A stretch of 64,000 bases of DNA, from positions 1 through 64,000 of IMG/VR virus record IMGVR_UViG_2895476258_000013. One strand, 5' to 3'. The translations under genes and the position numbers were made by a program. Shown here piece by piece: positions 27,248 to 48,000 of this stretch. Numbering within the stretch: position 1 is the first letter of the stretch; each line of letters opens with the position of its first letter. Source of the DNA: a virus. Its lineage: Duplodnaviria > Caudoviricetes. A model generated the notes under the pieces. That model saw only the letters and a program-made list of their open reading frames with translations, made no database searches and had not been told where the DNA came from.

Positions 27248-27742
27248 ATGAAGAAGATTCCTGGTGGGGGTCCAACGGAATCCAAGCCGCTCACCAGGGC
27301 AGAGATCAATCGTCGCTACCGGGAGCGCCACAAGGAGCGTTTGTGCGAACCGGAACGTCTGCGCGTCCGGGCTTACTACGAGGCGAACCGCGAGGTCCTT
27401 CTCGCTCGCGCCAAGGAACGCTATGCGAGCAATCCGGAGCGAGGCAGGGAGCGCGCACGGCGGGACTACCAGCGGCTGCGCCAAGAGATGTTCGTGGCCT
27501 ACGGGGATCGCTGTGCTTGTTGCGGCGAGTCCGAGCAAGAGTTCTTGTGTCTTGACCATGTGGGCGGCGGCGGCAACGCCGATCGGGCGAGGACGGGTGG
27601 CAAAAACTCCGGCGTGCTGCGCCGCTTGAGCAAGGAGGGGTGGCCGCAGGAGGGATATCGCGTTCTGTGCGCCAACTGCAATACCGCGACCATGCGCGGG
27701 CGTGTGTGTCCACATCAGAAGGAGAGTGATGGCGATGCGTAA
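27248..27742 (+). CDS. HNH-family endonuclease
   Basis: YGDRCACCGE...LDHVGGGG...YRVLCANCN. Confidence 0.75.
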   Translation: MKKIPGGGPTESKPLTRAEINRRYRERHKERLCEPERLRVRAYYEANREVLLARAKERYASNPERGRERARRDYQRLRQEMFVAYGDRCACCGESEQEFLCLDHVGGGGNADRARTGGKNSGVLRRLSKEGWPQEGYRVLCANCNTATMRGRVCPHQKESDGDA

Positions 27743-28298
27743 GGTGCCCACCATCTTCGTCCGGGACTGGAACAGCAACCCGAAGTACGTCACCGAAGAG
27801 CCGAACCCCGAATGCGCCTGGGTGTTCGCGGGGGAGGGCGTCCCGACGGTCAAGTGGGACGGCACCTGCGTAAAGCTCGACGAAGCAGGCCGCTGGTGGG
27901 CGCGCCGAGAGGTGAAGTCCGGCAAGGCTGATCCTCCTGACTTCGTGCTCATCGAGGAGGACCTGGAGACGGGCAAGCGGATGGGCTGGGAACCGGTCGA
28001 GCGGTCCGGGTTCGCCAAGTACCACGCCGAAGCGCTCCAGACGACGTTGCGACCGGGCACGTACGAGCTGCTGGGCCCGAAGATCAACGGCAACCCGGAC
28101 GGGTTCGAGGCGCACGTCCTGATGGAGCACGGCTGGGCGCCGCTCCGCATCCGCGAGGACGTCAAGTCCGCGCCGCGCGACTACGACGGGCTGCGGGAGT
28201 GGCTGCATGCCCGGCCGTACGAGGGCATCGTCTGGCACGGGCCGGATGGACGCATGGCCAAGATCAAAGCTCGGGACTTCCCTCAGGAGACGTCGTGA
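27729..28298 (+). CDS. ATP-dependent RNA ligase-like nucleotidyltransferase (DUF5565-like)
   Basis: Motif I TVKWDGT, TYELLGPKINGNP, motif IV EGIVW, motif V AKIK. Confidence 0.7.
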   Translation: MAMRKVPTIFVRDWNSNPKYVTEEPNPECAWVFAGEGVPTVKWDGTCVKLDEAGRWWARREVKSGKADPPDFVLIEEDLETGKRMGWEPVERSGFAKYHAEALQTTLRPGTYELLGPKINGNPDGFEAHVLMEHGWAPLRIREDVKSAPRDYDGLREWLHARPYEGIVWHGPDGRMAKIKARDFPQETS

Positions 28299-28468
28299 TC
28301 ACCCGCACAGTCAAAGCCGAAGCAGCCGACCCCAAGCACGGCATGACTCTGGACGAACTCGCCGCCTACGTGGAGGAAGCCCGCTGCGCCGAAGTGCCAG
28401 GCGGAGCACACATCCACGTGCGGGTGAACGTGCGAGGCGGCATCAAGAGGGTGGAGACCAAGCCGTAG
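28295..28468 (+). CDS. Small hypothetical protein
   Basis: GTGA coupled. Confidence 0.55.
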   Translation: MITRTVKAEAADPKHGMTLDELAAYVEEARCAEVPGGAHIHVRVNVRGGIKRVETKP

Positions 28469-28512
28469 GCCGTAACTGTCGGCTGCCCGTGACACGATCC
28501 GGGCGCGTCGAA

Positions 28513-28600
28513 TTGGCTTTCGGGCCTCTGACCTGTTATAAATCGAGTTGATCGTGCACCATCAGGCCCTCAGGCGGACGCCCGGGGGCTTTCTGCTTGT
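28513..28600 (+). promoter_or_regulatory. Candidate late promoter followed by a terminator-like hairpin
   Basis: TTGGCT-N18-TATAAA(T) at 28513-28543; GC stem 28566-28589 followed by TTTCTGCTTGT. Confidence 0.4.
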
Positions 28601-28606
28601 CTGGGG

Positions 28607-28861
28607 GTGGCCGAAGTGCAGGCCGCTTACGACCCGGTCACCATCGCTGTGGCAGCCGAACGACTGGAAGTACCACAGCCCACACTCAGGGTGTGGGCAT
28701 CACGCCACAACGCCCGCAAGCTGGCCAGAACCGGCAAAACGGTCTGGTACGACTACAACGACCTGGCCACGATCGAGGCGCACCTCCATCTGGGCAAGCG
28801 GGTCCCCATCACACCCGAGCTGAGAGACGCCTACCGCGCCCAGCTCCGCGCCGCCGCATAG
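28607..28861 (+). CDS. Small HTH (MerR-like) DNA-binding protein
   Basis: VTIAVAAERLEVPQPTLRVWASR. Confidence 0.7.
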   Translation: MAEVQAAYDPVTIAVAAERLEVPQPTLRVWASRHNARKLARTGKTVWYDYNDLATIEAHLHLGKRVPITPELRDAYRAQLRAAA

Positions 28862-28873
28862 CGGCCCACGAAC

Positions 28874-29068
28874 GCTCTCTGGTGCCGGTGGAGAGCCGGG
28901 CTCCGCTGCTTCCGCCCCCGTGGATGCCGAGTGGAGCCCACCGGGTGGCGGTCTGTTCTGCTCTCGCGTGATCTGAGGGGGTCCGCGAGACCTCGGGGTC
29001 CAGACCGCCACCCCCCTTGCTCCGGGCGGATGGTTTCAGCCGCACGCCGCAACGCTTGCCATCCGCCC
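28874..29068 (+). ncRNA. Candidate structured RNA (four consecutive stems)
   Basis: Stems 28874-80/28890-96, 28898-907/28930-39, 28943-55/29001-13, 29024-33/29059-68. Confidence 0.35.
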
Positions 29069-29151
29069 AGTACTACACGTGACGGCTCCATCCGTACATT
29101 CTCGCGACGCGCACACGCTTTGTCCGCTGAGACGCTCTCCCGGAGGTCAGC

Positions 29152-29559
29152 ATGACGCTTCGCGTCTCGAACGCCGCCCGGTCCGCCGCTGCGGACGCGG
29201 TTCGTCTCCTCATTGATGCGGGAGCAGGAGCTGGGAAAATCCGCGTCTACAACGGTTCTCAACCCGCTGGCCCGGACACGGCTCTGTCCGGTCAGACCCT
29301 GCTCGCCGAGTTCACCCTCGCGGACCCCAGCTTTGGCGCAGCCAGCAACGGCGTGACGACGCTACTGGGCACACCCCGGACGACGACCGGTGTCGCAGCA
29401 GGTACCGCCTCATGGTTCCGGGCGCTCGACAGCAACAACGTGGCCATACTGGACGGCGCGGTCAGCACCTCGAGTGCGGAGTTGAATCTCAACACGACCA
29501 CGATCTCGATCGGAGTCAACGTCGAGATCACGGCTGGCACCATCACCATGCCGGCATAA
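29152..29559 (+). CDS. Putative virion structural protein
   Basis: Small beta-rich Ala/Gly/Thr protein, KIRVYNGSQPA...GTASWFR; GGAGG RBS. Confidence 0.65.
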   Translation: MTLRVSNAARSAAADAVRLLIDAGAGAGKIRVYNGSQPAGPDTALSGQTLLAEFTLADPSFGAASNGVTTLLGTPRTTTGVAAGTASWFRALDSNNVAILDGAVSTSSAELNLNTTTISIGVNVEITAGTITMPA

Positions 29560-29562
29560 CCC

Positions 29563-30270
29563 ATGGCCACTCCCATCGTCCGTGAGGTCCTGCAGAACTC
29601 TGTCGGCGGCGGCCCTGTGACCGTCGTCACTGGCGTTGGCACCCAGGTCGACGACGTCCTGTGCACGATTCACGGCTGCGACTACGGCACCCTCGCCGGG
29701 ATGACCACCCCGACCGGCACGTCGGGTACGTGGGCTGAGGATGCCTTCGCCGACCTGGGCGTCAACACGATCCACCTGAAACTGTGGACCAGGCCGGTCA
29801 CCGTGAGCGGGCCGCAAACGGTCACTGTGCCCGACCAGGGTTTCGGCGAGGAAAACTTTCAGTTCACCTACGTTGTGGCGGGCGTGGCAGCCGTTGGTGG
29901 CATCGACGGAGCGGCAGGCGCGACGGATGGAGCGGGAACCAGCGCCACCGCGCCGTCCGTCCCCCCAACCGGCACAGATGATCTGTTGATCGCTGCCTGG
30001 TTCAGCGCCAACAATGTCGTGAACTTCTCCTTCCCCGCGGGGATGACGAACGGCCTCGAGGAGGAGACGGCCGGTTTCGTCACCCTCGCCACGGCCCGCG
30101 AGGTGTTGACCGCGAGCGGCGCGACTGGAACCCGCGTGGCCACGGCCAGCGTCTCCTGCTCGGGTTTCACCGGGGTTTCCATCGCGCTCAAAGGTGCGGC
30201 CACTGCGGCCGGCGCAGGCCCTCCACTCTCTCCGTATGCGGGCGCCCGTAGGCGTCTACTTGTCCGTTAG
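29563..30270 (+). CDS. Putative virion appendage/minor tail-like protein
   Basis: Thr/Gly/Ala-rich, APSV...DDLLIAAW; basic C-terminus RRRLLVR. Confidence 0.6.
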   Translation: MATPIVREVLQNSVGGGPVTVVTGVGTQVDDVLCTIHGCDYGTLAGMTTPTGTSGTWAEDAFADLGVNTIHLKLWTRPVTVSGPQTVTVPDQGFGEENFQFTYVVAGVAAVGGIDGAAGATDGAGTSATAPSVPPTGTDDLLIAAWFSANNVVNFSFPAGMTNGLEEETAGFVTLATAREVLTASGATGTRVATASVSCSGFTGVSIALKGAATAAGAGPPLSPYAGARRRLLVR

Positions 30271-30293
30271 CGCTCGTCATTTAGGGGTTCGTC

Positions 30294-30950
30294 ATGGCTG
30301 TGACCGTATTCGTGTACGGCAAGCTGCAGCAGAGCTTGTTCGAGGGCAGGATCAACTTCGGCACCGACACGATCAAGGCGATGCTGCTGAGCAGCTACAC
30401 GGTCGGCGCCACGCAGGACACCGCCCAGTTCCTTTCGGACGTTGTGACTGGCGGCGTCGGAGTGGAGACCACCGGGTCGGGTTACACGGCTGGTGGTGCC
30501 ACGTTGGCATCCAAGACGGTCACCTACACTGCGGCGAACTCCTGGTCCGTGCAGCGCGCCAACAGCACGGCTTACGCGGTCGGCGACGTGGTGCGCCCTG
30601 TGTCGGCGAACGGCTTCGTGTACCAAGCCGTGGTGGCCGGCACTAGCGGCGGCACTCTTCCGACCTACACCACCACCGTGGGCGATGACTTCACCGACGG
30701 CACCGTCACGTGGGTGTGCGCGGGCCGGGGCGCCCTGGTCGTGGACGCTGCGGATCCGTCGTGGACCACCGTCAACCCGGGAACCCTGTCCGCGTCGCAC
30801 GTCCTGTTCTACAAGGACACTGGCACCCCCTCGACGTCGCCGGTGATGCTGTACTGGGATCTCGGCGGCACCCAGACCGCCAGCAACGGCGGCGCTTTCA
30901 CACCGCAGCTCGACTCCACCGAGGGCCTCGTCGTCTCGTTCACGAGCTGA
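30294..30950 (+). CDS. Putative virion structural protein with carbohydrate-binding-like insert
   Basis: DTIKAML...GYTAGG; insert STAYAVGDVV...VYQA. Confidence 0.65.
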   Translation: MAVTVFVYGKLQQSLFEGRINFGTDTIKAMLLSSYTVGATQDTAQFLSDVVTGGVGVETTGSGYTAGGATLASKTVTYTAANSWSVQRANSTAYAVGDVVRPVSANGFVYQAVVAGTSGGTLPTYTTTVGDDFTDGTVTWVCAGRGALVVDAADPSWTTVNPGTLSASHVLFYKDTGTPSTSPVMLYWDLGGTQTASNGGAFTPQLDSTEGLVVSFTS

Positions 30951-30956
30951 GCTGAT

Positions 30957-31973
30957 GTGAGCCGCGTCCTCGTCACGCGGGTCGCCCGCCCGTCAGATGC
31001 CGAGGCGATTGCCGCACTCCTTGCGGGCCGCGGCGGGCGGCTGGTGCTGCAACCGGGCACCGGGACGTTCGGAGCGTTCCCGGACGCCACCAACACCGGG
31101 TACACGGCGTGGCCCAGCTACACCGGCAGCCTCACCACCTACAGCGGCGCCGACCCGATCCCGATTGGGCAGTCGGGCGCCACCTTCGAGGGGCTGCGGT
31201 TCGACGGTGGGGTGGCCATCGGCACCGCCGGATCCAGGCCCACGGGCGTCACCTTCCGGGGCTGCTTGTTCGAAAGCACCGCGCCGAATTTCATGAACGT
31301 CCAGGACTACGGGACCGGGACGACGTTCGAGTACTGCACGTTCCGCCCGGCTGCCGTGTCGTCGCCGCCAGTGAGTTTTGCCCAGAGCTTCCAGTTCGGG
31401 ATCAACCACAGTGGTGTCGGGCTCGTCGCCCGCCGGTGCGAATTCTGGGGCTTCGGCAACGCCATTCAGTTGGACGCCTCATCGACCGCGGCGAACCCCG
31501 TGACTGTCGAGTACTGCTACATGCACGACGCGGCTGACCAGGCGAACGACACCTATCACCACGACGGCATCCTGAGCAGCAACGGCGGCCCGAACGTCAG
31601 CCACATCACGATCCGCGGTAACACGATCGTCAGCGGGGGCAACACCAACGCGATCGCGTTGCAAGTGGATCCGGGTAGCCCCGCGTATTACTCGAACATC
31701 ACGGCTGTCGGGAACCTCCTGGGCGGGTTCGGGGCGACCGTCAACATCGGCGGCAACGGCACCGGCAACACCAACGTGATCTTCACGGACAACACCTTTA
31801 CGACCTTGATCGAGCCACTGTTTTTCCCTCTGTACGGCTGGTCGGACGGGTCGGGCAACCTGTGGCGGCGCAACCGCTGGTACGTGCCGCCCGGCGCGGA
31901 GTACGGCAGCCCTGCCGACAGCGGCAAGTTCTGGACGCCGAGCGGCGTAAGCACCACCGACTGGACCGGCTGA
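30957..31973 (+). CDS. Right-handed parallel beta-helix protein (pectin-lyase-like)
   Basis: Repeated VTFRGCLF, TFEYCTF, VEYCYMH, ITIRGNTI, NVIFTDNTF. Confidence 0.75.
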   Translation: MSRVLVTRVARPSDAEAIAALLAGRGGRLVLQPGTGTFGAFPDATNTGYTAWPSYTGSLTTYSGADPIPIGQSGATFEGLRFDGGVAIGTAGSRPTGVTFRGCLFESTAPNFMNVQDYGTGTTFEYCTFRPAAVSSPPVSFAQSFQFGINHSGVGLVARRCEFWGFGNAIQLDASSTAANPVTVEYCYMHDAADQANDTYHHDGILSSNGGPNVSHITIRGNTIVSGGNTNAIALQVDPGSPAYYSNITAVGNLLGGFGATVNIGGNGTGNTNVIFTDNTFTTLIEPLFFPLYGWSDGSGNLWRRNRWYVPPGAEYGSPADSGKFWTPSGVSTTDWTG

Positions 31974-31998
31974 AGCCCGGCGGAGCGGAGAGATAACT

Positions 31999-32490
31999 GT
32001 GATCCAGTTCCGGGTCTACACCGTCAGTTTCACGGCCTCCGCTCAGGGTGGGGCGGTGGACTGGTTCGAGCTGGTCGCGCCGTCCTCGTGCGGCCTGTCG
32101 ATCTTCTATCTGGACATCGGCCAGTCCACGGACTACGGCGATACGCAGGACGAGGGCATCCGTTACTACATCAAGCGGGCGTCCGGCGCCTACACCAGCG
32201 GTAGTGGCGGCAACACCGGTGTGGCCCGGGTCCCGGTCCGTTCCGGGGACGTGTCTGCCACCTTCACGGCGGAGACGCTGAACACGACGCAGGCCGCCGC
32301 AGGGTCGGGCGCTCTCGCCACGGTTCACCAGTCCACGTTCAACGTCCGTGTCGGGCTGGACAAGCTGTGGACCCCGGAGACGGCGATCTCGTGCAAGGCG
32401 TCGGAGGCGCTCGTCGTGGGCATGAGTGCGGCGCCGACGGATGCGGTGACCTGGGAGGGCACCGCGTACGTAGCCGAGATCATGGGCTGA
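31999..32490 (+). CDS. Putative virion structural protein
   Basis: Beta-rich 163 aa; GGAG RBS. Confidence 0.6.
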   Translation: MIQFRVYTVSFTASAQGGAVDWFELVAPSSCGLSIFYLDIGQSTDYGDTQDEGIRYYIKRASGAYTSGSGGNTGVARVPVRSGDVSATFTAETLNTTQAAAGSGALATVHQSTFNVRVGLDKLWTPETAISCKASEALVVGMSAAPTDAVTWEGTAYVAEIMG

Positions 32491-32494
32491 TCCA

Positions 32495-33748
32495 ATGGGC
32501 CGGGCGATCTTCCGGCGTCGCTGGCGGGATCGTCCGCGTCCTCGCCGGAGAGTCCCCACCGCCGCCGCGGCACCAACCAGCGTCACTCAGCAGGGCGGCG
32601 CGGCAGCTGTACGGCTGCGCGCGTCCGCAGGCTCGGTCTCCGTCACCGACATCCTGCCCGCCAGCAACGTCGCCGCCATCAGACTCAGGGCATCCGCCGG
32701 GGCAGTACTTGCCGTTCAGGCCTCACCCGTGTCCGGCCGCGGCGGCAGCCTCATGCTCCGTGCCGGTCTGGGCGCAGCCCAGACCGCCCTGGTTGCAGCT
32801 CACGCAGGCGAGGCAGGCTCGGTCCGCCTGCGCCCAAGCGCGGCCGACATCACCGCTGTGCAGGCATCCCCTGTGTCGGGCAGGGCAGGGGCGATCCTGC
32901 TCCGCGCGTCCACGGGGACGCTCACCGCCGTCAGGGCTGTCGCAGAGCAGGGGCCCCCCGGTTCCCTCCGCATGCGGGCTGGCTCCGGCGAGTTCACCTC
33001 CGCAGCCAACGTCACACTCACCAGCGGCGCCGGCGCACTTCGACTCCACGCGTCCGCAGGGCAGACCGAAGCCGTTCAGATCGCGGCTACGGCTGGTTCG
33101 GCCGGCTCGGTCCGTCTGCGCGCGAGCAGCGGCACCGTGTCCACCGGGGCCGTCCACGTCAGCGTCGGCACGACAGGCGTGATCGCTGTGCGGGCCGGAT
33201 CTGCCGCCCTGTCCACGGTGCGGCAAGCGCCCGTCCAGGGCGCGGCGGGTGCTGTCGCGATGCGGGCGTCGACGGGTGCGGCTCAAGCTGTTCAACAGCA
33301 GACCCTCGCAGGGGCTGCTGCCGCACTACACCTGTCCGGCCAAACAGGCGCCGTGGTGCTGGGCGGCGGCTCATCCGCACCAGCGGGCGCGAGCGGGCAT
33401 CTCCACATCGCAGGCGCCGCCGGCACGGTGACACCCGTCCAACACGCCTACAGCGCCGCAAGGGCGGCACTCCTGCGGTTGTCTCCCGGATCCGCGACGG
33501 TCCTGGTCGACGAAGGTGACAACGTCTACCTGATCGGCGACGCCGGCGTCCTCCGGATCACCGCAGCCTCGGCCGCGGTCACGAACGTCCAGCATCCCGC
33601 CCCAAGCGGCAGGGCCGGCAAGCTCCTGCTCGCCGGTGCGGTTGGGGGCGCTGCGGTGGTGGACGGTTCTCTCGACATCGACGGTGTCGTCTCCGCCCCC
33701 TATGTCAGGTGGCGTGTGGGCGCACCGACTCTGCGCGTGGGAGTGTGA
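32495..33748 (+). CDS. Ala/Gly-rich tandem repeat protein (~24-aa repeats), fibre-like
   Basis: About 15 repeats of G-x-A-G-x-L-R-L-R-A-S-x-G. Confidence 0.7.
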   Translation: MGRAIFRRRWRDRPRPRRRVPTAAAAPTSVTQQGGAAAVRLRASAGSVSVTDILPASNVAAIRLRASAGAVLAVQASPVSGRGGSLMLRAGLGAAQTALVAAHAGEAGSVRLRPSAADITAVQASPVSGRAGAILLRASTGTLTAVRAVAEQGPPGSLRMRAGSGEFTSAANVTLTSGAGALRLHASAGQTEAVQIAATAGSAGSVRLRASSGTVSTGAVHVSVGTTGVIAVRAGSAALSTVRQAPVQGAAGAVAMRASTGAAQAVQQQTLAGAAAALHLSGQTGAVVLGGGSSAPAGASGHLHIAGAAGTVTPVQHAYSAARAALLRLSPGSATVLVDEGDNVYLIGDAGVLRITAASAAVTNVQHPAPSGRAGKLLLAGAVGGAAVVDGSLDIDGVVSAPYVRWRVGAPTLRVGV

Positions 33749-34027
33749 ATGGTCATCGTCCCCGCCTCCAGTAAGGAATTCCTGCACATTCCCGTCGCGG
33801 ACGGCTCGGCCGGCATCCCTGGGGAGATCGCCGTGATCGCTTCCTGTAACGAGCCGGCCGAATCCGACTGGAAGACCGCTACCTGGGACAGCGGAAACTA
33901 CAAGGTGCTGATCGGCCCTGCGACCAGCCTTCCGCTGACGGTCGGCACGTACACGGCGTGGGTTCGGCTGACCGCTGCTCCCGAAGTCATCGTCCGCCGC
34001 TCTGGTCCGGTCCGGGTGGGTGCCTGA
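33749..34027 (+). CDS. Small Ig-like adaptor (BppU N-terminal-like), copy 1
   Basis: SDWKTATWD...VLIGP...GTYTAWVRLTAAPE. Confidence 0.65.
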   Translation: MVIVPASSKEFLHIPVADGSAGIPGEIAVIASCNEPAESDWKTATWDSGNYKVLIGPATSLPLTVGTYTAWVRLTAAPEVIVRRSGPVRVGA

Positions 34028-34545
34028 TGGCCATAGTGGAGCTGTACTTCGCCCCCGAAGAGCCGTCATTCCTGCCCGCCGCCGGATACCCCCAATACCT
34101 CAACACTCCCGGCTCCACGTTCGGGCTGACCGGACTCGCCTACGACGGTGTAGGCGCAAGCGTCGAAGAGGCCGCCTGGAAGTTCAACCCGGCCAAATAC
34201 GGGTCAGGCGCGATCACCGTCGACATCATCTGGTACGGGCTCGGCGCCACCAGCGGCGCCGTCGTCTGGGGAGCCGGACTCGCCGCGATCACCCCGAACA
34301 CCGACACACAGGATCCGACCACGAAAACGTTCGCGGCCAGCGGGAGCGTCACCACCTCGCACCTGGGCACGACGGCGAAGCGGCTGCACAAGTCGACGAT
34401 CACATTGTCGGGTGCGAGCCTGGACAGCATCGCGGCCGGCGACGAAGCGTGGCTGCGAGTCTTCCGCACACCTGGCGCGGCCGGCGACACGCTGGCAGCG
34501 GACGCGGTCGTCACCTCGGTCCGTCTCTCCTACAGCGACACGTAG
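34027..34545 (+). CDS. Putative virion structural protein
   Basis: TGATG coupled; beta-rich. Confidence 0.6.
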   Translation: MAIVELYFAPEEPSFLPAAGYPQYLNTPGSTFGLTGLAYDGVGASVEEAAWKFNPAKYGSGAITVDIIWYGLGATSGAVVWGAGLAAITPNTDTQDPTTKTFAASGSVTTSHLGTTAKRLHKSTITLSGASLDSIAAGDEAWLRVFRTPGAAGDTLAADAVVTSVRLSYSDT

Positions 34546-34553
34546 GAGGCGGC

Positions 34554-35720
34554 GTGGCGGTCCGCTTCGACGCCGACGGCGAGAGTTACACCAGATCGAC
34601 CGGGCTGGGCGCGGTCACGGTCTTCTCGTTCGCCTGCTGGGTCAAACTGGCCGTCGACCGCGCGACCACTACGGTCATCCTGCAGATCGACAACGGCTCA
34701 GGGGCGAACAGGCTGAGGCTGAACGCCTGGAACGGCACCGCCTTGACGTTCCAGTCGGATGGCGGCGGCTGGTTCGGCACCATCGGCCACACGCTGGTCG
34801 TCGGCGAATGGACATACGTCGCGCTCAGCGCCACATCCAACCCCGGCCAAGCCCGCACCGCCATACGAGCCGCCGGCTCCACCACATTCGCCGGCGGATC
34901 CCCCAGCCAGGCCAACATCACCGTCAACGCCGCGACCCTGCGCATCGGCGACGGGCAGGCCGCCTCCGAGTGGCTCAACGGGTCCATCGCCGCCGTCAAA
35001 GTGTGGGACCAGGAACTCACCGCCGACGAGCTGCAGCAGGAATCCTGGACGTACATGCCGCAGCGGACCGCCGGGCTGCGCGGCTGGTATCCCCTGCTCA
35101 CCAACACCACCACGGACCTCAGCGGCTCAGGCCAAACCCTGACCGGCGGCACTGACGCAGCTCTCGATGACGGGCCGCCGATCTCGTGGCGGACGGGCCG
35201 CCACAGGACCGTTTTCCCCGCCAGCGGCGTCTCGGGGACTCTGGCGGGCGTCCTCCCGGCGCTGACCGCGACTTCGTCCGGCATCGTTGAGACGTCCGGG
35301 ACGCTCGCCGGCGCTCTGCCTGCCCTGACGGCAAACGCAGCCGGCGTTGTTGAGTCCGCGGGTGCCCTGGATGCCACACTCCCGGCACTCACAGCATCCC
35401 TGACGGGCGAGTCGGACATGCCCGCCGGTGAACTCCTGGCGACGCTACCGGCACTGTCGGCGTCCCTCACAGGCGACGTCACCGTTACCGGGACGCTCGA
35501 CGCCGCTCTGCCCGCGCTGACCGGCGGCTTCACCGACGTCAAAACGGGCGACTTCGACTTCATCGCGGCAGGCCTGAGCCGCGGCTGGACCAGCCCGGCC
35601 CTCGACCCAGCCTGGGCAGGGCTCGACGTCGCAGCCGCGTGGGCCGCCCGCGACATCACCCGCGGGTGGACAGAAGACGACACCAGCCGCGAATGGACCG
35701 CACGCACGCCCACCCTGTGA
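34554..35720 (+). CDS. LamG/concanavalin-A lectin-domain protein with C-terminal repeats
   Basis: FSFACWVK, EWTYVAL, LNGSIAAVKVWDQELT; repeats GTLAGALPALTA. Confidence 0.8.
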   Translation: MAVRFDADGESYTRSTGLGAVTVFSFACWVKLAVDRATTTVILQIDNGSGANRLRLNAWNGTALTFQSDGGGWFGTIGHTLVVGEWTYVALSATSNPGQARTAIRAAGSTTFAGGSPSQANITVNAATLRIGDGQAASEWLNGSIAAVKVWDQELTADELQQESWTYMPQRTAGLRGWYPLLTNTTTDLSGSGQTLTGGTDAALDDGPPISWRTGRHRTVFPASGVSGTLAGVLPALTATSSGIVETSGTLAGALPALTANAAGVVESAGALDATLPALTASLTGESDMPAGELLATLPALSASLTGDVTVTGTLDAALPALTGGFTDVKTGDFDFIAAGLSRGWTSPALDPAWAGLDVAAAWAARDITRGWTEDDTSREWTARTPTL

Positions 35721-35730
35721 GGAGGCGAGG

Positions 35731-36018
35731 ATGCCGCTGCAGATGCCGAGCCTCTCCCTGGAGTACGTACACGCCACCATCGACGGACCGCCGAACAAGA
35801 CGTCGTTCGCCGTCGAGATGGCGATCCTCCCCGAAGGCCAAGACCCCGGAGTCAGCGACTGGGAAACCGCGGCATGGGATGGCGACGATGTCATCTGCCT
35901 CGTCGGTCCCGGCGGTCTGATCGCGCTGACGAAGGGCGTCCAGTACGAGGTGTGGGTGCGCATCACCGCCTCGCCGGAGATCCCCGTCCTCCGCCCCGGA
36001 TTCATCCACGCCACTTAA
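35731..36018 (+). CDS. Small Ig-like adaptor, copy 2 (paralog of 33749-34027)
   Basis: SDWETAAWD...CLVGP...YEVWVRITASPE. Confidence 0.65.
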   Translation: MPLQMPSLSLEYVHATIDGPPNKTSFAVEMAILPEGQDPGVSDWETAAWDGDDVICLVGPGGLIALTKGVQYEVWVRITASPEIPVLRPGFIHAT

Positions 36019-36058
36019 GGACCCCGCGCATGCCCAGCTCAGACCCGCGCAGGCAGCC

Positions 36059-36742
36059 ATGAACGATCTCCTCGTGATCGTCCCGAGCCGTGGCCGCCCC
36101 CACAACATCGCTGACCTGTATGTCGCGTGGAGCGAGACCGCACACAGAGACGCCGGCCTGCTGGTCGCGGTCGATGACGACGACCCGGCCCTGCCCGAAT
36201 ATCAGCGGGTGTGCTCCCTGATCGGTGTCGAGTTGGAGGTCGGCCCGAGGCTCCGTCTCACGGGCACGCTCAACAAGGTCGCCACCGAACGGGCTCCACA
36301 TCACAAGGCGATCGCGTTCATGGGCGACGACCACCGCCCCCGCACCATTGGCTGGGACACGCAACTCCTGGCCGAGCTGAACCGGCTCGGCACCGGGATC
36401 GTCTACGGCAATGACCTGCTGCAGGGCGAGAAGATGGCGACCGCCGTCGCCATAACATCCGACATCGTGGCAGCGCTCGGCTACATGGCCCCACCCTCGA
36501 TGGTGCACCTCTGCCTCGACCTGGTGTGGGTGGAATGGGGGCGGTCGATCGCCCGGCTCACCTACCTGCCGGGCACGGTCATCGAGCACATGCACCCAGC
36601 CGCCGGCAAAGCCGCCAACGACGCCGGTTATGAGGAAGCCAACAGCCCTCACCAGACCGCCGCCGACCATGCTGCCTACCACGCGTACAGGAACGGCCCG
36701 CAGTTCGCTGCGGACGTGGAGAAGCTGAAGGCGCTCCTATGA
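36059..36742 (+). CDS. GT-A fold (GT2-like) glycosyltransferase
   Basis: LLVIVPSRGRP, VDDDD, AFMGDD, VIEHMHP. Confidence 0.75.
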   Translation: MNDLLVIVPSRGRPHNIADLYVAWSETAHRDAGLLVAVDDDDPALPEYQRVCSLIGVELEVGPRLRLTGTLNKVATERAPHHKAIAFMGDDHRPRTIGWDTQLLAELNRLGTGIVYGNDLLQGEKMATAVAITSDIVAALGYMAPPSMVHLCLDLVWVEWGRSIARLTYLPGTVIEHMHPAAGKAANDAGYEEANSPHQTAADHAAYHAYRNGPQFAADVEKLKALL

Positions 36743-37293
36743 GAGTCCGCCTCCGCCCCGCGCACACCCGGGAACGGCTCGCCAAGATCTACGCCAAGCC
36801 TCACGACCACACCCAGTGGATCGACCACCACCTGCGAGTCGGAGTCACGGTCGAGTTCGCCCGCTGGTTCCTCGCCTGCGGTGTCCAAACCGTCGCTGAC
36901 CTGTCCTGCGGGGACGCGACGATTGCCCGCGCCCTTGGCCTCAACGAGGAGAGCCTGTTCCTTGGCGACTTCGCGCCCGGCTACAAGCTGACCGGCCCTA
37001 TCGAGGACACCGTCCACCAGATCCGCAACGTGGACCTGTTCATCTGCTCCGAAACGCTCGAGCACCTCGACAACCCCGACACGGTCCTCAAAGAGATCAG
37101 GGCGAAGACTCGCTACCTGGTGCTGTCCACGCCCGAGGGCGAGACCAGCACCGGCAACCCCGAGCACTACTGGGGCTGGGACTCGGCAGAGGTCGAACGC
37201 ATGCTCACCGCCGCCGGCTTCACCCCGGAGATTCACACCGTGCTCGGGCTGCGCGAGTACGGCTACGACTTCCAGATCTGGGGATGCCGGTGA
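36739..37293 (+). CDS. Class I SAM-dependent methyltransferase
   Basis: VADLSCGD, DLFICSETLEHLDNP. Confidence 0.75.
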   Translation: MRVRLRPAHTRERLAKIYAKPHDHTQWIDHHLRVGVTVEFARWFLACGVQTVADLSCGDATIARALGLNEESLFLGDFAPGYKLTGPIEDTVHQIRNVDLFICSETLEHLDNPDTVLKEIRAKTRYLVLSTPEGETSTGNPEHYWGWDSAEVERMLTAAGFTPEIHTVLGLREYGYDFQIWGCR

Positions 37294-37865
37294 CCGAATG
37301 GCGGCTGTTCGAAAGCGACAGCCCCGCAGTGGCTACGTTCGCCTTCCACGAGCACAGGCCCCGGGCCGCGCACCTCGAACAGTCCGACCACCACGCCCGA
37401 CTGCACACCACAGCACAACTCATCCGGGACCTCGCGCCAGCCAGCGTGGTGGACCTCGGCTGCGGCGACGGTGGTCTCCTCAGCCTGATCAAAGACATCC
37501 CGTCGTGGGGCTATGACTTCCACCCTGCCAGCGCCCAAGGCTGGGCCGAACGCGGCGTCACCGCCGAACACCGAGACGTGTTCGGCGCCCGCGACGTCCC
37601 CAAGTGGGGTCAGGTCGCGGTGATGACCGAAGTGCTCGAACATCTCGCAGACCCGCACGGGACCGTCGAATGGGTCAGCCGCCACGCCGAATGGGTCGTC
37701 GCCTCCTCACCCAAGGACGAGACCGGCGACAGGCACGGCGACTGCCACGCGTGGGCTTGGGACATCGACGGCTACCGAGCTCTGTTCGAACCCCACTACC
37801 AGGTGACCAGCCACACCACAGTCGACTGGTCTCAGATCATCGTGGGACGGAGCCGGCGCACGTGA
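37284..37865 (+). CDS. Class I SAM-dependent methyltransferase
   Basis: VVDLGCGDG, MTEVLEHLADP. Confidence 0.8.
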   Translation: MPVTEWRLFESDSPAVATFAFHEHRPRAAHLEQSDHHARLHTTAQLIRDLAPASVVDLGCGDGGLLSLIKDIPSWGYDFHPASAQGWAERGVTAEHRDVFGARDVPKWGQVAVMTEVLEHLADPHGTVEWVSRHAEWVVASSPKDETGDRHGDCHAWAWDIDGYRALFEPHYQVTSHTTVDWSQIIVGRSRRT

Positions 37866-38743
37866 AGGTCCTCATCACCGGTTCGTCGGGGTTCGTTGGC
37901 CGGCACTTCGTCCGAGCGTTGGACGGCCACGACCTTCACCTGGTGGACGTGGCCGCAGGGACGGACGCCCGGGATTTCTTCCGCCTGAACCACACCCGGT
38001 TCGACCTCGTCATCCACCTTGCCGCAGTGGTGGGCGGGCGAGCCCAGATTGAGGGCGCTCCGCTATCCCTCGCGGTGGATCTGGCGATCGACGCCGACAT
38101 GTTCGCGTGGGCTTGGCGCACCCGTCCGTACCGAATCGTCTACTTCTCCTCGTCAGCCGCGTACCCGATCGACCTGCAGAACGACCTGTCTCGCCCGTAT
38201 CGGCTACACGAGTCGGATCTGAAACTGACGGGCAACATCGGCAACCCGGACATGACGTACGGGTGGGCGAAACTCACCGGCGAGCAGCTCGCCCAGCACG
38301 CCGAGAACGAAGGGCTGCGCGTCCACGTGTTCAGGCCGTTCTCCGGCTTTGGCGAAGACCAGGACCTGGCGTATCCGTTCCCGTCGTTCATCCGCCGCGC
38401 CGCCACCAGGCAGGACCCGTTCACCGTATGGGGCGACGGCGAACAAGTCAGAGACTGGGTTCACATCGACGACATCGTGAACGCGACGCTGACAGCGGTG
38501 GAGGAGGACGTGCCCGGACCGGTCAACCTGTGCACCGGCCGGGACACCTCATTCAACGAGCTGGCCGCCCTCGTGTGCGAGCAGGCCGGGTACAAGCCCG
38601 AGTTGCGTCACATCCTGGACGCCCCTCAAGGGGTTGCCTACCGCGTTGGGGACCCGACCAAGCTCAACAGCTTCTACACGCCGAAGGTCGCTCTGGAAGA
38701 CGGCATAGCCAGCGCTCTGGCCGCCACACGGGGGAGGGCGTAG
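37862..38743 (+). CDS. NAD-dependent nucleotide-sugar epimerase/dehydratase
   Basis: ITGSSGFVG, IHLAA, YFSSSAAY, catalytic YGWAK. Confidence 0.92.
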   Translation: MKVLITGSSGFVGRHFVRALDGHDLHLVDVAAGTDARDFFRLNHTRFDLVIHLAAVVGGRAQIEGAPLSLAVDLAIDADMFAWAWRTRPYRIVYFSSSAAYPIDLQNDLSRPYRLHESDLKLTGNIGNPDMTYGWAKLTGEQLAQHAENEGLRVHVFRPFSGFGEDQDLAYPFPSFIRRAATRQDPFTVWGDGEQVRDWVHIDDIVNATLTAVEEDVPGPVNLCTGRDTSFNELAALVCEQAGYKPELRHILDAPQGVAYRVGDPTKLNSFYTPKVALEDGIASALAATRGRA

Positions 38744-39108
38744 TGGCTGCACAGCAGTGGAGACACGGCTGGATCCCGCTCACGCCGACAGCCGCCCGGG
38801 AGAAGAACCATGGCACGACGCCAGGCCCCGGCAGCAAGCTCGGTAAGTCCCTCGCCCGCAGCCGAGAGACGTCGCAGGCGATGGACACGGAGATCCGCCG
38901 CGCCGCCCGCAGCAGGAACAAGACCGTTCAGCCTGACCGGCCCGAACCCGCTGACGACGTGGCCGAGGCGACGAAGGCCATCAAGAGCGGTGACCACGCC
39001 CGCGCGGTGAACCTCCTCACCCGGGCGATGAACAACGCCAAGGGCGCAGACAAGAAGGCGATCAAGGCGAAGCGGGACGAACTCGCCCGCCGCCTGATGG
39101 GCCGATAG
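38743..39108 (+). CDS. Basic hypothetical protein
   Basis: Starts on the epimerase stop; WRHGWIPL. Confidence 0.55.
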   Translation: MAAQQWRHGWIPLTPTAAREKNHGTTPGPGSKLGKSLARSRETSQAMDTEIRRAARSRNKTVQPDRPEPADDVAEATKAIKSGDHARAVNLLTRAMNNAKGADKKAIKAKRDELARRLMGR

Positions 39109-39111
39109 GCC

Positions 39112-39339
39112 GTGGCCAACGCAAGGCTCGCCCACGTTGGCGACCCCGACAGCTTGCGCCGCGTTCTGGCCGAGATCCGCGCTGCCTACCAAGGCGATCC
39201 AGAAGCGGCTCACAGCCTCGAAGACGACACGATGCGCCACGTACTCCGGCTCACCGCCGAAGGACACCCACAAGCCCGTCAGCTCGCCACAGAGATGCTG
39301 ACGATCGCCGACTTGGACCTCAAGCGCTGGTGCGCCTGA
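39112..39339 (+). CDS. Hypothetical protein
   Basis: GDPEAAHSLED...WCA. Confidence 0.65.
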   Translation: MANARLAHVGDPDSLRRVLAEIRAAYQGDPEAAHSLEDDTMRHVLRLTAEGHPQARQLATEMLTIADLDLKRWCA

Positions 39340-39445
39340 ACGTCCACGGCTGACCCCAGAAGATCCTCCAGGTAGCTCCTGGAGGCCAGAGAGCCCGGCG
39401 TCCTCATGCGCCGGGCTCTCGCCACACCATGAGGAGATCAACCAG

Positions 39446-39916
39446 ATGCGCATCAAGATGCAGGCCGCCCTTACCTCGCTTCAAGAGCAGGGGCGTCTGG
39501 CCATAGCCGCGAACGCCGCGTCCCGCCCCAGCCCGTCTCTTTCCGATTCGTTGAGCCCACCGCGTCAGGAGGCGCAGGCGCCTGAGCACGAGAGCGTGAT
39601 ATGGCTCCGCGCCGTGATCGAATGCGACAGGGCGCTCGACTCCGCACTGATAGGCATGGCGGGGCGCGACGGCGGTAGCGAGCAGGCTTCCGCTCACGTC
39701 AACCGTCACGATTTCGAGGACGCTGTCGCTCGCTGTGAAGCGGAGTTGAAGCTTCTCGACCTGCACGTGCCCAATCGCTACGGCTACTGTCTCACCTGCG
39801 ACCCGGACTCATGCGGATGCGTCGGTAGTGGCGACTACCCGTGCTACACGATCAAGGCGCTCCTGTCCGGCTACCGCCACCGCGGAGGCTTCAAGCCCGA
39901 GTGGGTGAACGCCTGA
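39446..39916 (+). CDS. DUF6221-like protein
   Basis: RHD...VARCEAELKLLDLH...YPCYTIKALLSGY...EW. Confidence 0.6.
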   Translation: MRIKMQAALTSLQEQGRLAIAANAASRPSPSLSDSLSPPRQEAQAPEHESVIWLRAVIECDRALDSALIGMAGRDGGSEQASAHVNRHDFEDAVARCEAELKLLDLHVPNRYGYCLTCDPDSCGCVGSGDYPCYTIKALLSGYRHRGGFKPEWVNA

Positions 39917-40557
39917 TGCGCATCCAGATCCTCACTCTCCCGTCCGTCATGGTCGGTGACGACATGGATGAGCCGTTCGCGCTCATCGTGGACCAGCACG
40001 ACTCGGACCTGGATCAGCAGACCGCCGAGGAGTGGCAGCGGTTCAAGACCAGCGCTGGGGCACGCGCCCTCCTGATCACCCCGGACACGGTCGAGGTCGT
40101 AGGCCGGTACGCAGAGCCTGCGCACAAGGTCGCCGAAATGGCCGGCTGCGTCCACTGCGACAACGGCGAGCTGAGCGTCGTCGTTGCCTGCGCATGCGCG
40201 ACACCTTGTTGGAACCCGGACTGCCCCAAGGCTCGACCAGCAGCCACAGATGGCACGCTCTTCGACAAGCCGGTCCGCCTCGAATGGCCCGAGGGTCCAC
40301 CTCTCGGACTCTCCCGGCAGACGCTCACGGAGAAGCTACGCGTGTTCGGCGCCACCCTGCTGGAGCCAAACCCGACCGTCCTGAGTGACCGCAACGGCAG
40401 CCCGATGAACATCTTGGCGACGTGCTCGTGCGGAAAGGCGATGGGACGAGCCTGGAACACGATTGACTCAGACCCTCGCCAGGAACGAACCGAGATCGCC
40501 TGCAACGGCTGCGGCAACCGCCTGACCGTCACGGTTCCTCTCGGGGACCAGACATGA
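39916..40557 (+). CDS. Hypothetical protein with CxxC motifs
   Basis: TGATG coupled. Confidence 0.55.
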   Translation: MRIQILTLPSVMVGDDMDEPFALIVDQHDSDLDQQTAEEWQRFKTSAGARALLITPDTVEVVGRYAEPAHKVAEMAGCVHCDNGELSVVVACACATPCWNPDCPKARPAATDGTLFDKPVRLEWPEGPPLGLSRQTLTEKLRVFGATLLEPNPTVLSDRNGSPMNILATCSCGKAMGRAWNTIDSDPRQERTEIACNGCGNRLTVTVPLGDQT

Positions 40558-40730
40558 GGCGCATCCTCGGAGCGGCACTGATCGCGCTCCCCGTCGTCGT
40601 CTTCCTGGCGTCCATGGCCATCAACAAGGGCTGGTTGTACGTCGTCACGATGCTCGCCATAGCGTCGCTGTCCCTCGGCTGCGTTCTAGGCGGCATGCAC
40701 CTGCTCGCGCCCAAGGACAACGGCCGCTAG
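40554..40730 (+). CDS. Small two-TM membrane protein (58 aa)
   Basis: Translated by hand MRRILGAALIALPVVVFLAS. Confidence 0.55.
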   Translation: MRRILGAALIALPVVVFLASMAINKGWLYVVTMLAIASLSLGCVLGGMHLLAPKDNGR

Positions 40731-40769
40731 ACAGCCCTAGATTTCCTGATGAAGGGGTGGGGGTAGTCC

Positions 40770-41072
40770 ATGCCGTACGGCCCCACATCTGCCCGCACCG
40801 TCCCACTCCCCAAGGGGTGGGGGGTCATACGTAAGCGCATCCTGAAGCGGGACGGATTCGTCTGCACCTGGATAGACGGCGGGATGCGCTGCTCGGTGCC
40901 GGCCACGGACGTGGACCACATCGGAGACCCGGCAGACCACAGCGAAGCGAATTTGAGAAGCCTCTGCCAGCCACATCACCGCAGACGCAGCTCAGCTCAG
41001 GGTGGACGCGCCGCGCAGGCCAAGAAGATCCCGCGCAAGAGACGCCAGGAAGCCCACCCCGGACTCCTCTGA
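40770..41072 (+). CDS. Terminase-associated HNH endonuclease
   Basis: RKRILKRDGFVC...ATDVDHI...NLRSLCQPHH, upstream of terS. Confidence 0.85.
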   Translation: MPYGPTSARTVPLPKGWGVIRKRILKRDGFVCTWIDGGMRCSVPATDVDHIGDPADHSEANLRSLCQPHHRRRSSAQGGRAAQAKKIPRKRRQEAHPGLL

Positions 41073-41157
41073 AACGGTCACACAGAGTCGCATCTGTCTC
41101 CAGATCGCCGGGCCTAGCAACTACCCGCTGTGATAACCGCAGGACGGGAGAGAACCC

Positions 41158-41301
41158 ATGGACGCCGTACTCCTCCTCGCAGCTCTAGCGTTCCTCGCCT
41201 CCGCCATCTGGTCCGCCATCCAACGCGCATGGCCGATCGCTCTACTCGGACTCGGCGCCTTCCTGCTCGCCATCCACGCGAGCGGACTCATCACGCCGTG
41301 A
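41158..41301 (+). CDS. Small two-TM membrane protein (47 aa)
   Basis: Translated by hand MDAVLLLAALAFLASAIW; GGGAG RBS. Confidence 0.55.
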   Translation: MDAVLLLAALAFLASAIWSAIQRAWPIALLGLGAFLLAIHASGLITP

Positions 41302-41456
41302 GCCTGCATGTCGTGCCCATCGGTGATCTCATAGACCACACGACCACAGACGAGTGTCCGTGCGGTCCACGAGACCAGTCAGTGACGAGAGACGACGGCA
41401 CCATCCGATGGCTTGTCGTCCATCACAGCCTCGACGGTAGAGAGCTGACCGAGTGA
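41298..41456 (+). CDS. Small hypothetical protein
   Basis: HVVPIGDLIDH...CPCGP...VVHHSLDGRE. Confidence 0.6.
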   Translation: MSLHVVPIGDLIDHTTTDECPCGPRDQSVTRDDGTIRWLVVHHSLDGRELTE

Positions 41457-41499
41457 TCAGCGTTCTATCATGAAGCCGTGATCATGAAGAGCGAATACG

Positions 41500-41700
41500 G
41501 CAAACCGGACAAACGGCGTCCATGCGGGTCGCAGAGTTCCCGCAGGTCGCAGCCATAGGGTGGGGAATGCCCCCTTTGTCCGTTTTTCCCGCGCCCGCTT
41601 CGGCATAGCGCCTCTGATCTTGTACGGGCCGTAACGAGTTCCGCCTAGCGATCTTGGCGGCCACCACAGACCACCTCCGACGTGACGACCCTGCGCCGAC
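41500..41700. other. Probable cos/packaging region (exact cut site not determinable)
   Basis: Noncoding gap between HNH and terS, typical of cos phages. Confidence 0.35.
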
Positions 41701-41814
41701 ATGGCCTTTCGTCCATTCGGAGGTTCGCGCTCGACCTCGAGTGCATGCTTTCACGCCCCCGCGGCTGTGTCCCCGCCATGGGGGTTGGCCGCCTTCCCGA
41801 CATGGGAGATTCTG

Positions 41815-47982: not shown

Positions 47983-48000
47983 ATCCATGGAGGCTCTTTG

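Follow-up and report, generated by a model that had tools for sequence, protein, structure and literature searches.

Phage-encoded glycosylation of virions has so far been shown for only a few mycobacteriophages, where it blunts antibody recognition. O-glycosylated virions are described for Che8 (gp108-110), Corndog and Myrna; as this work is summarized in the papers citing it, the proteins that the Che8 and Corndog enzymes act on are those of capsid and tail tube (Freeman et al. 2023, Cell Host Microbe 31:1216, cited in PMC11600133 and PMC12363180). Corndog carries the O-methyltransferase gp35 and the glycosyltransferases gp36-38 inside its structural operon (PMC4351075). A larger machinery builds the capsid glycan of chlorovirus PBCV-1: it comprises A064R (GT-GT-methyltransferase), the second methyltransferase A061L and GMD/GMER (PMC9614988). 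On the side of tail fibres, small homodimeric “garland” proteins surround the fibre tips of phage 7-7-1, the other chains of its model 9RKV being long and short fibres (PMC12796354). Here we describe a prophage locus that combines genes of both kinds. It lies in IMG/VR record IMGVR_UViG_2895476258_000013, positions 1 to 64,000, and this whole stretch of 64,000 nucleotides (nt) is called the window below. Ten genes for fibre-type proteins run directly into genes for a GT-A-type glycosyltransferase (GT-A), two S-adenosylmethionine (SAM) methyltransferases (MT1 and MT2) and an extended short-chain dehydrogenase/reductase (SDR), which together are referred to as the kit, and a second glycosyltransferase, of GT4 type, is encoded behind the capsid gene. 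According to the reading that we favour, and whose chances we put at about even, these are two neighbouring late modules: a tail-tip/receptor-binding set and a glycan pathway coating a virion protein. That the sugar genes make up one methylated-glycan pathway appears well supported by sequence comparison, and the locus most likely extends the known idea of virion glycosylation and is not a new kind of system.

A predicted glycan pathway in two late positions

The kit genes, the capsid gene and the glycosyltransferase gene behind it are as follows (aa, amino acids).

36059-36742, + strand: GT-A-type glycosyltransferase, 227 aa; phrog_14945 “glycosyltransferase”, E 2.5e-48
36739-37293, + strand: MT1, 184 aa, probable class I SAM methyltransferase; Methyltransf_23 19.7 bits, under the cut-off of 27
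37284-37865, + strand: MT2, 193 aa, class I SAM methyltransferase; Methyltransf_23 E 5.5e-10, 39.7 bits vs cut-off 27
37862-38743, + strand: extended SDR of the nucleoside diphosphate (NDP)-sugar epimerase/reductase family, 293 aa; PF01370, E 1.1e-34
47001-47945, + strand: HK97-fold major capsid protein, candidate glycan acceptor; Phage_capsid E 5.6e-28, phrog_10
47998-48996, + strand: GT4 (GT-B) glycosyltransferase directly behind the capsid gene; phrog_26352, E 2.6e-109

Thus, a putative GT-A, two SAM methyltransferases and an NAD sugar epimerase-family gene, as named by a first-pass annotation made from the letters of this DNA alone, are indeed present (phrog_14945, Methyltransf_23 with MT1 below the cut-off, PF01370), and so is the second glycosyltransferase that it had placed right after the capsid gene. 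GT4 exceeds the cut-offs of three Pfam families: Glyco_trans_1_4 (52.7 bits, cut-off 27), Glycos_transf_1 (49.7, cut-off 26.4) and Glyco_trans_4_4 (34.3, cut-off 29.7). GT-A has no match in Pfam, NCBIfam or PDB sequences (in PDB at E up to 1); its sequence shows a beta-strand motif near the N-terminus and a DxD-like stretch rich in Asp. NCBIfam names no kit enzyme above its cut-off, and PDB sequence searches with MT2 and GT4 were uninformative.

The link between glycosyl transfer and methylation comes from natural fusions. The GT-A domain is found in 82 longer proteins, most of which have it fused to Methyltransf_23 (PF13489), FkbM (PF05050) or a YrrM-type O-methyltransferase (PF13578). One of them, P0127, is 49% identical in its N-terminal half to the GT-A of the window, and MT2 over its full length is 38% identical (E 2e-29) to the C-terminal methyltransferase half of the same protein. 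Since the two domains are joined in nature, P0127 included, there is strong evidence at the level of sequence that GT-A and MT2 would act on the same glycan. MT1 is related to the methyltransferase half of P0127 only weakly (E 9e-7); it has a motif-I-like Gly-Asp stretch and homologues in three related loci (L018, L019 and L057).

SDR has its closest solved relatives in GDP-L-fucose synthase (7ll6, E 1.9e-21) and GDP-mannose 3,5-epimerase. Its Gly-rich NAD(P) motif and YxxxK are present and align to 7ll6, and YxxxK is kept in 30 of 32 relatives. The position of the catalytic Cys, within the Ser-Ser-Cys motif, is occupied by Ala in alignments to both 7ll6 and 8sg0, as well as in 31 of the 32 relatives. 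This Cys serves as the general base for C3/C5 epimerization. The score for the NCBIfam GDP-fucose synthase model is 86.5 bits vs the equivalog cut-off of 500. The enzyme is conserved and probably active, and it may be a 4-reductase or 4-epimerase rather than a 3,5-epimerase; the “epimerised” glycan of the first-pass annotation is not established, the Cys of both GDP-fucose synthase and GDP-mannose 3,5-epimerase being absent. A substrate for SDR could be supplied by the host, since a GDP-mannose 4,6-dehydratase scoring near the cut-off is encoded on another of its contigs.

With GT-A as query, 26 loci were obtained from IMG/VR and 13 from genomes. SDR adjoins GT-A in 22 and 11 of them, respectively, and all 21 loci that extend far enough have HNH, small or large terminase genes downstream of the kit. 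Where a host is named, it is a Streptomyces species, such as S. olivaceus NRRL B-3009 (L051), or Sphaerisporangium melleum (JCM 13064, L057), whose prophage has the same four-gene cassette. The synteny in other actinophages that had been proposed as a check was thus found: GT-A and SDR, with zero to two methyltransferases between them, precede HNH/terminase in about 30 prophages of Streptomyces and Streptosporangiaceae. The slot between GT-A and SDR is empty in the closest relative (L004, 84-87% identity) and in L017, while elsewhere it accommodates one or two methyltransferases of three sequence types, or unrelated small genes. Because of this variability, methylation is, as far as gene content can tell, an optional tailoring step. 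Genes met in the slot among five loci (L009, L013, L014, L015 and L016) include one for a small, by eye DUF3307-like membrane protein, one resembling a DnaQ-like exonuclease and the third methyltransferase type. Among related proviruses, those bearing the same kit have lengths of 82-88 kb and are rated 100% complete. GT-A homologues also occur in two Streptomyces phages of 125-134 kb, Annadreamy (L002) and Coruscant (L003), where they are paired with a second glycosyltransferase and a cytidylyl/adenylyl-transferase.

The distribution of GT4 is broader than that of the kit. Among 80 capsid-protein loci it follows the capsid gene in 30, a head-tail adaptor gene takes this place in 39, and 10 are too short. 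Even in L047, with a capsid gene of a different lineage, too distant for tblastn with the capsid protein of the window, GT4 is retained and overlaps the stop codon of the capsid gene. All 11 records that could be checked for both features and have the kit also have GT4 after the capsid gene. The reverse does not hold: GT4 occurs without the kit in G013 (complete, with terminal repeats), G011 and G014, and two near-complete relatives (G007 and G008) have neither. This nested pattern suggests that GT4 may act first and that the kit would extend its product. Together with the occurrence of GT-A fused to MT2-like domains elsewhere, confinement of the kit to GT4-bearing phages upholds the earlier grouping of the sugar genes and the capsid-adjacent GT4 into one pathway.

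The fibre-type block

Upstream of GT-A lie the ten genes g01-g10.

29152-29559, + strand: g01, 135 aa, small tail-fibre-associated structural protein; phrog_3758 “virion structural protein”, E 5.5e-32
29563-30270, + strand: g02, 235 aa, phage-only, fold family unassigned; Thr+Ser+Ala+Gly fraction 0.47, nearest ESM Atlas clusters 87-95% viral
30294-30950, + strand: g03, 218 aa, tail-tip/baseplate-type beta-sandwich with a CBM5/12-like insert (residues about 84-145); phrog_644
30957-31973, + strand: g04, 338 aa, right-handed beta-helix (tailspike- or depolymerase-like); Pfam Beta_helix E 5e-6, 26.7 bits vs cut-off 25.9
31999-32490, + strand: g05, 163 aa; homologue with 87% identity in L031
32495-33748, + strand: g06, up to 417 aa (alternative start 32729), Ala/Gly-rich, fibre-shaft-like; repeats of ~24 residues
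33749-34027, + strand: g07, 92 aa, immunoglobulin (Ig)-like small protein, paralogue of g10; aligns with g10 and 16 homologues from relatives
34027-34545, + strand: g08, 172 aa, phage-only, invariably accompanied by g09; frame set by GC content at third codon positions (GC3) of 0.85, Atlas clusters 78-87% viral
34554-35720, + strand: g09, 388 aa, LamG/ConA-like lectin domain followed by five 21-residue repeats; Laminin_G_3, E 9.4e-12
35731-36018, + strand: g10, 95 aa, Ig/IPT-like beta-sandwich; AlphaFold2 (AF2) model, pLDDT 80.7

Two proteins of this set point to the tail. Residues 7-134 of g01 align to residues 9-139 of the 141-aa chain PDB 9RKV_A (E 2.3e-14), which belongs to the tail-fibre model of phage 7-7-1; by its size and its presence in four chains, the 141-aa chain is probably the garland protein. 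Homologues of g01 occupy the structural-gene half of mycobacteriophage genomes, about 22-43 kb into genomes of 43-101 kb, follow the tail genes in L038 and L040 and adjoin the large terminase gene in three metagenomic phages. For g03, the AF2 model (pLDDT 91.6) gave in VIA-align Z 10.9 over 130 residues to a baseplate chain of Klebsiella phage KP1 (9f4a_AY), Z 7.2 to the Bxb1 tail tip (9d93_Ra) and Z 6.9 to the fibre/tail adaptor of GP4 (8jou_a), its insert alone matching the Pam1 tailspike (Z 8.8) and chitin-binding domains (Z 4-5). BFVD matches of the model include a structural protein of 7-7-1; Foldseek against PDB found no match at E up to 0.001, and PDB sequence searches with g03 and g08 were uninformative. 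We also considered g03 as a capsid decoration, for which a weak match to phrog_20658 (E 6e-7) speaks, and rejected this assignment since its structural matches are tail parts.

The homologue of g04 in L031 is 66% identical. A periodic motif recurs in g06 at residues 39, 62, 110, 158, 182 and 206, and the repeats of g09 span residues 234-319; both proteins end alike, with Trp...Pro-Thr-Leu. Tandem Repeats Finder detected no DNA tandem repeat in the block, the repeats existing at protein level only. The ATG of g07 stands in frame directly after the g06 stop codon (33746-33751), so that read-through would fuse the two, while g09 and g10 are in different frames at their junction (35700-35735). For g09, a GTG start with a ribosome-binding site was located at 34554, and homologues of g08 and g09 adjoin in L004 and L031. 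Since the model of g10 matches many Ig/TIG domains (Z about 7-8) and none specifically, no specific role can be assigned to it; its homologues stand directly upstream of GT-A in many relatives. No family match was obtained for g02, g05 and g06 in the profile searches run on each (Pfam for all three, PHROG for g02 and g05). In composition, g01-g06, g08 and g09 have Thr+Ser+Ala+Gly fractions of 0.42-0.52 and few charged residues, the fraction being 0.38 in g07, 0.29 in g10 and 0.26-0.38 in other phage proteins.

Most of what the first-pass annotation had seen in these ten genes is therefore sustained. The number of genes was right; the beta-helix (g04), LamG (g09), CBM-like insert (g03), repeats (g06, g09) and Ig-like folds (g07, g10) are backed by Pfam, structure matches and protein repeats; structural-type products of a phage are indicated by phrog_3758, the 9RKV chain and the baseplate/tail-tip matches; and the Thr/Ser/Ala-rich composition applies to eight of the ten, g07 and g10 being lower. 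A tail module separate from the block does exist, consisting of the tape measure (52067-56452), a 392-aa protein, a 1033-aa minor tail protein and a collagen-like fibre, but calling it “full”, as had been done, is open to doubt, for it offers few receptor-binding candidates. Of the two roles suggested earlier for the block, a capsid decoration is not supported, the structural matches being to tail-fibre, baseplate and tail-tip proteins and relatives having tailspike-like proteins at the same place: L015, for instance, encodes there an LtfC-like protein and a beta-helix protein of pectate-lyase type with 1012 aa. A second appendage is better described as the fibre set of the one tail. Taken together, the matches of g01 and g03, the positions of g01 homologues and the fibre-type genes at this place in relatives make it most likely that the block supplies the single tail with a variable module of receptor-binding and tail-tip accessories, predicted to be encoded at a displaced locus.

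Prophage setting and competing explanations

The window corresponds to bases 42335-106334 of a contig of 150 kb. GC content of the contig is about 0.71 at both ends and lower, ~0.66, in an island at roughly 40-125 kb (~85 kb), at the left edge of which, just left of window base 1, a gene for a large serine recombinase is situated (C565:41477-41743). Based on the island and the recombinase at its boundary the window can be regarded as the body of a prophage. The entire island of ~85 kb may be a single element, given the 82-88 kb of the complete related proviruses. Nearly all genes of the window are on the + strand. Early genes are followed by the stretch 29152-39108, HNH, small and large terminase, portal, a VG15/MuF-like gene, scaffold, HK97-fold capsid, GT4, connectors, tail tube, tape measure, the 392-aa and 1033-aa proteins, the collagen-like fibre and endolysin. 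Gene content thus suggests a temperate siphophage integrated via a serine integrase in a high-GC actinomycete. The host is probably one of Streptosporangiaceae, since the named homologues of g03 (619 homologues in all) come from Microbispora, Nonomuraea, Streptosporangium and Sphaerisporangium, all of this family. The assembly (G000; 14.3 Mb, 671 contigs, 8% estimated contamination, 67 tyrosine-recombinase matches) possibly contains more than one organism. Megablast of the whole stretch against phages gave no match, and neither did tblastn of g03 and of MT2.

Three features downstream of SDR complete the picture.

38743-39108, + strand: 121-aa basic protein with no assigned function; GC3 0.87 in frame, GTG start after a G-rich ribosome-binding site, start overlapping the SDR stop codon
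40770-41072, + strand: HNH endonuclease (context); phrog_333, E 7e-26, position as Che8 gene 112
41701-43861, + strand: terminase genes (context), small 41701-42240 and large 42152-43861; Terminase_7, E 4.6e-43, tblastn to actinophage large terminases

Gene calls confirm that the ten genes at 29152-36018 lead straight into GT-A, the two methyltransferases and SDR at 36059-38743. The 15 genes from g01 through the 121-aa protein, all on the + strand, are separated by gaps of no more than 41 nt, with several stop/start overlaps. Two open reading frames (ORFs), 34020-35720 and 38107-39108, proved to be partly wrong-frame artefacts. The epimerase gene that had been drawn up to 39108 in fact ends at 38743, and the remainder encodes the separate basic protein, for which family searches gave no match. 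Consensus promoter and terminator scans of 27500-42500 yielded nothing exceeding shuffles, so that operon limits are judged by gene spacing alone. The region immediately upstream of g01 (28607-29151) encodes an 84-aa helix-turn-helix protein, by eye of excisionase/MerR type, and then has no convincing gene for ~290 nt; it is a candidate region for control of the late array at its start. A small gene resembling the helix-turn-helix gene also precedes the block in L017. The HNH gene lies ~630 nt upstream of the small terminase gene. Partnership of HNH and terminase is usual for cos-type actinophages, Che8 gene 112 being an example.

In the favoured reading, module 1 (29152-36018) would provide the garland/adaptor-like g01 and g03, the beta-helix, two repeat-shaft proteins each with an Ig-like partner, and lectin-like LamG and CBM5/12-like parts, which most likely dock on the tail tip and probably bind or cut polysaccharide of the host wall. 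Module 2 (36059-38743 together with GT4 at 47998-48996) would be a soluble glycan-building pathway of the late stage of infection. Co-expression with the capsid protein is supposed for GT4, which would attach the first sugar to an exposed virion protein, the presumed acceptor. The donor would be made by SDR from a nucleotide-sugar of the host, probably a GDP-4-keto-6-deoxyhexose; GT-A would then add the sugar made by SDR, and MT1 and MT2 would O-methylate it, the nature of the sugar, the order of steps and the site of methylation all being presumed. In favour of this reading we count the tight packing of the 15 genes, the tail association of module 1, the conservation of the kit before HNH and terminase, a layout like that of Che8, the nested occurrence of GT4 and kit, the fusions, the retention of GT4 in L047 although the capsid gene there is of another lineage, the position of a glycosyltransferase between capsid and tail genes in phage TurkishDelight, the host GDP-mannose 4,6-dehydratase candidate and the absence of a hydroxymethylase.

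Several observations weigh against it. The counts behind the nested pattern are small and the records related, so that they amount to no statistical proof. GT-A and GT4 have no detectable similarity to Che8 gp108-110 in BLASTP (E 0.086, 0.48 and 2.4), and tblastn of both against 50,697 phage records produced no mycobacteriophage match. Comparison of capsid proteins from GT4-bearing and GT4-less phages revealed no clear Ser/Thr-rich acceptor tail. Block and kit can be parted: L031 has the block without GT-A or SDR (53-87% identity for g01, g03-g06, g08 and g09, lower for the Ig-like genes) and L054 the kit without such a block. Obligate coupling of the two, implied by the first-pass annotation, is thus not supported, the closest relative moreover lacking both methyltransferases, and there is a possibility that their adjacency reflects a shared cargo hot spot only. 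Finally, GT-A homologues of large Streptomyces phages are found among DNA-metabolism genes, beside a cytidylyltransferase, and not among structural genes. As to the acceptor, the same capsid comparison showed four Ser/Thr-enriched columns (22, 179, 299 and 310) and short Ser/Thr-containing C-termini, possibly phylogenetic, and the tail tube has a short Ser/Thr-rich N-terminal stretch. Many GT4-less relatives (L096, L100, L102, L103, L106, L107 and L115) differ from the GT4-bearing ones in the capsid gene, which in them encodes a C-terminal extension, long and highly charged, that the others lack.

If the virion is not the target, the kit could modify the host envelope, that is, a wall teichoic/teichuronic-type glycopolymer or a glycosylated receptor, the fibre genes being mere neighbours; this might happen in the lysogen, as lysogenic conversion or superinfection exclusion, or late, keeping progeny off debris. 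TarP of Staphylococcus aureus is an example of a prophage-encoded enzyme that modifies the envelope of a lysogen, though the lack of a PDB sequence match at E up to 1 speaks against close kinship of GT-A with TarP/TarS-type enzymes. Such a role would suit the assignment of the GT-A family by PHROGs to “moron, auxiliary metabolic gene and host takeover”, the separability of kit and fibre block, the failure to find an acceptor motif on the capsid protein, and the BE/BK-type Streptomyces phages, where GT-A homologues with a second glycosyltransferase and a cytidylyltransferase, away from structural genes, recall wall-polymer chemistry. However, all the enzymes are small and look soluble by eye, and the kit sits without a gap or an obvious promoter or terminator of its own inside a one-strand late array that continues to HNH and terminase. 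GT4, in addition, is wedged between capsid and head-tail adaptor genes in every member, which is a poor site for expression from a repressed prophage. Hence we consider the envelope an unlikely target. To modification of phage DNA (glycosylated or hypermodified bases protecting against restriction, with methyltransferases acting on DNA or on a base-linked sugar) we give only a very slight chance. GT-A does match the first 235 positions of phrog_2675, labelled “DNA methyltransferase”, and its homologues in large Streptomyces phages stand among replication and nucleotide-metabolism genes. The label, however, is explained by the fusions of GT-A with Methyltransf_23, FkbM and YrrM-type small-molecule/sugar O-methyltransferases, the kit is located in the late and not the early region, and no thymidylate-synthase-type hydroxymethylase was found on the prophage contig. 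Besides, to our knowledge, neither an NDP-sugar SDR nor a capsid-locked GT4 is a feature of known DNA-glycosylation systems.

The other alternatives leave the glycan on the virion and change the protein that bears it. Adjacency would be functional, as proposed in the first-pass annotation, if the sugars were placed on products of the block, i.e. on Thr/Ser-rich fibres and Ig-like proteins, instead of capsid or tail tube. The raised content of Thr, Ser, Ala and Gly in eight block proteins (42-52% vs 26-38% elsewhere) would fit such an acceptor, as would the finding that such proteins immediately precede GT-A in 18 of the roughly 21 relatives for which data exist and that an Ig-like gene abuts GT-A in many relatives. 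Nevertheless, the block without GT-A or SDR in L031 and the kit without the block in L054 disagree with it, and the kit depends on GT4, whose tie is to the capsid gene rather than to fibre genes; we think this quite unlikely. Still less probable, in our estimation, are “glyco-fibres”, where the pathway would decorate the displaced lectin-like fibres and Ig-like proteins, and not the capsid only, with a methyl-capped deoxy-sugar, cassette and chemistry being swapped as one host-range/shielding unit in phages of mycelial actinomycetes.

Comparison with described systems

If two modules with a virion-coating pathway are the right description, a version unrelated in sequence to that of mycobacteriophages exists across a whole family of Streptomyces and Streptosporangiaceae prophages. 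It would be modular, with a core GT4 at the capsid gene, an add-on of GT-A and SDR before the terminase and zero to two exchangeable methyltransferases between them. Sugar-coating of phage particles would then be widespread in soil actinophages, where antibodies are irrelevant, and the purpose of the glycan would have to be sought in protection from proteases, stickiness to soil or mycelium, or avoidance of the phage's own lectin-like fibres. The relatives supply a defined genetic series for such a pathway: no GT4, GT4 only, GT4 with the kit, and the kit with methyltransferases.

As in Che8 and Corndog, soluble glycosyltransferases (in Corndog with a methyltransferase) are encoded by a phage of an actinobacterial host in or near its late structural genes. 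The resemblance to Che8 extends to gene order, three glycosyltransferases at the right genome end being followed there by a small gene, HNH, cos and terminase (genes 108-112), so that the pre-terminase position of the kit is comparable with that of the Che8 virion-glycosylation genes. Unlike these phages, the kit adds an NDP-sugar SDR, and the predicted pathway is split between two places, with GT4 next to the capsid gene on its downstream side and the other enzymes encoded ahead of the terminase. The hosts also differ, being Streptomyces and Streptosporangiaceae. A closer parallel for GT4 is gene 20 of Streptomyces phage TurkishDelight, a GT4-type enzyme, 36% identical, located as here between major capsid and major tail genes. 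It differs in being a 678-aa two-domain enzyme, and no GT-A/SDR homologue of this phage was listed in the phage-collection searches.

For the fibre block the comparison is with 7-7-1 and Milano (PDB 9RKV; PMC12796354), 7-7-1 having a sequence homologue of g01 and a fold match of g03, and Milano carrying its g01 homologue as the last gene before the genome end. Both are myoviruses of Agrobacterium, with a Gram-negative host and a complex baseplate, whereas the phage considered here is a siphovirus.

The claim that this pathway is more complete than glycosyltransferases alone loses its force as a distinction, since Corndog already has an O-methyltransferase beside its glycosyltransferases, and PBCV-1 possesses a GT-GT-methyltransferase, a second methyltransferase and GMD/GMER. 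PBCV-1 differs as a eukaryotic virus with an N-linked glycan on its capsid protein, and SDR of the window lacks the epimerase Cys. The likenesses, compared by description, are a viral glycosyltransferase joined to a SAM methyltransferase, two methyltransferases acting sequentially on a terminal 6-deoxyhexose, and an SDR of GDP-fucose-synthase type relying on host GDP-mannose. Judged by this analogy, PBCV-1 is the nearest working counterpart of the pathway predicted here.

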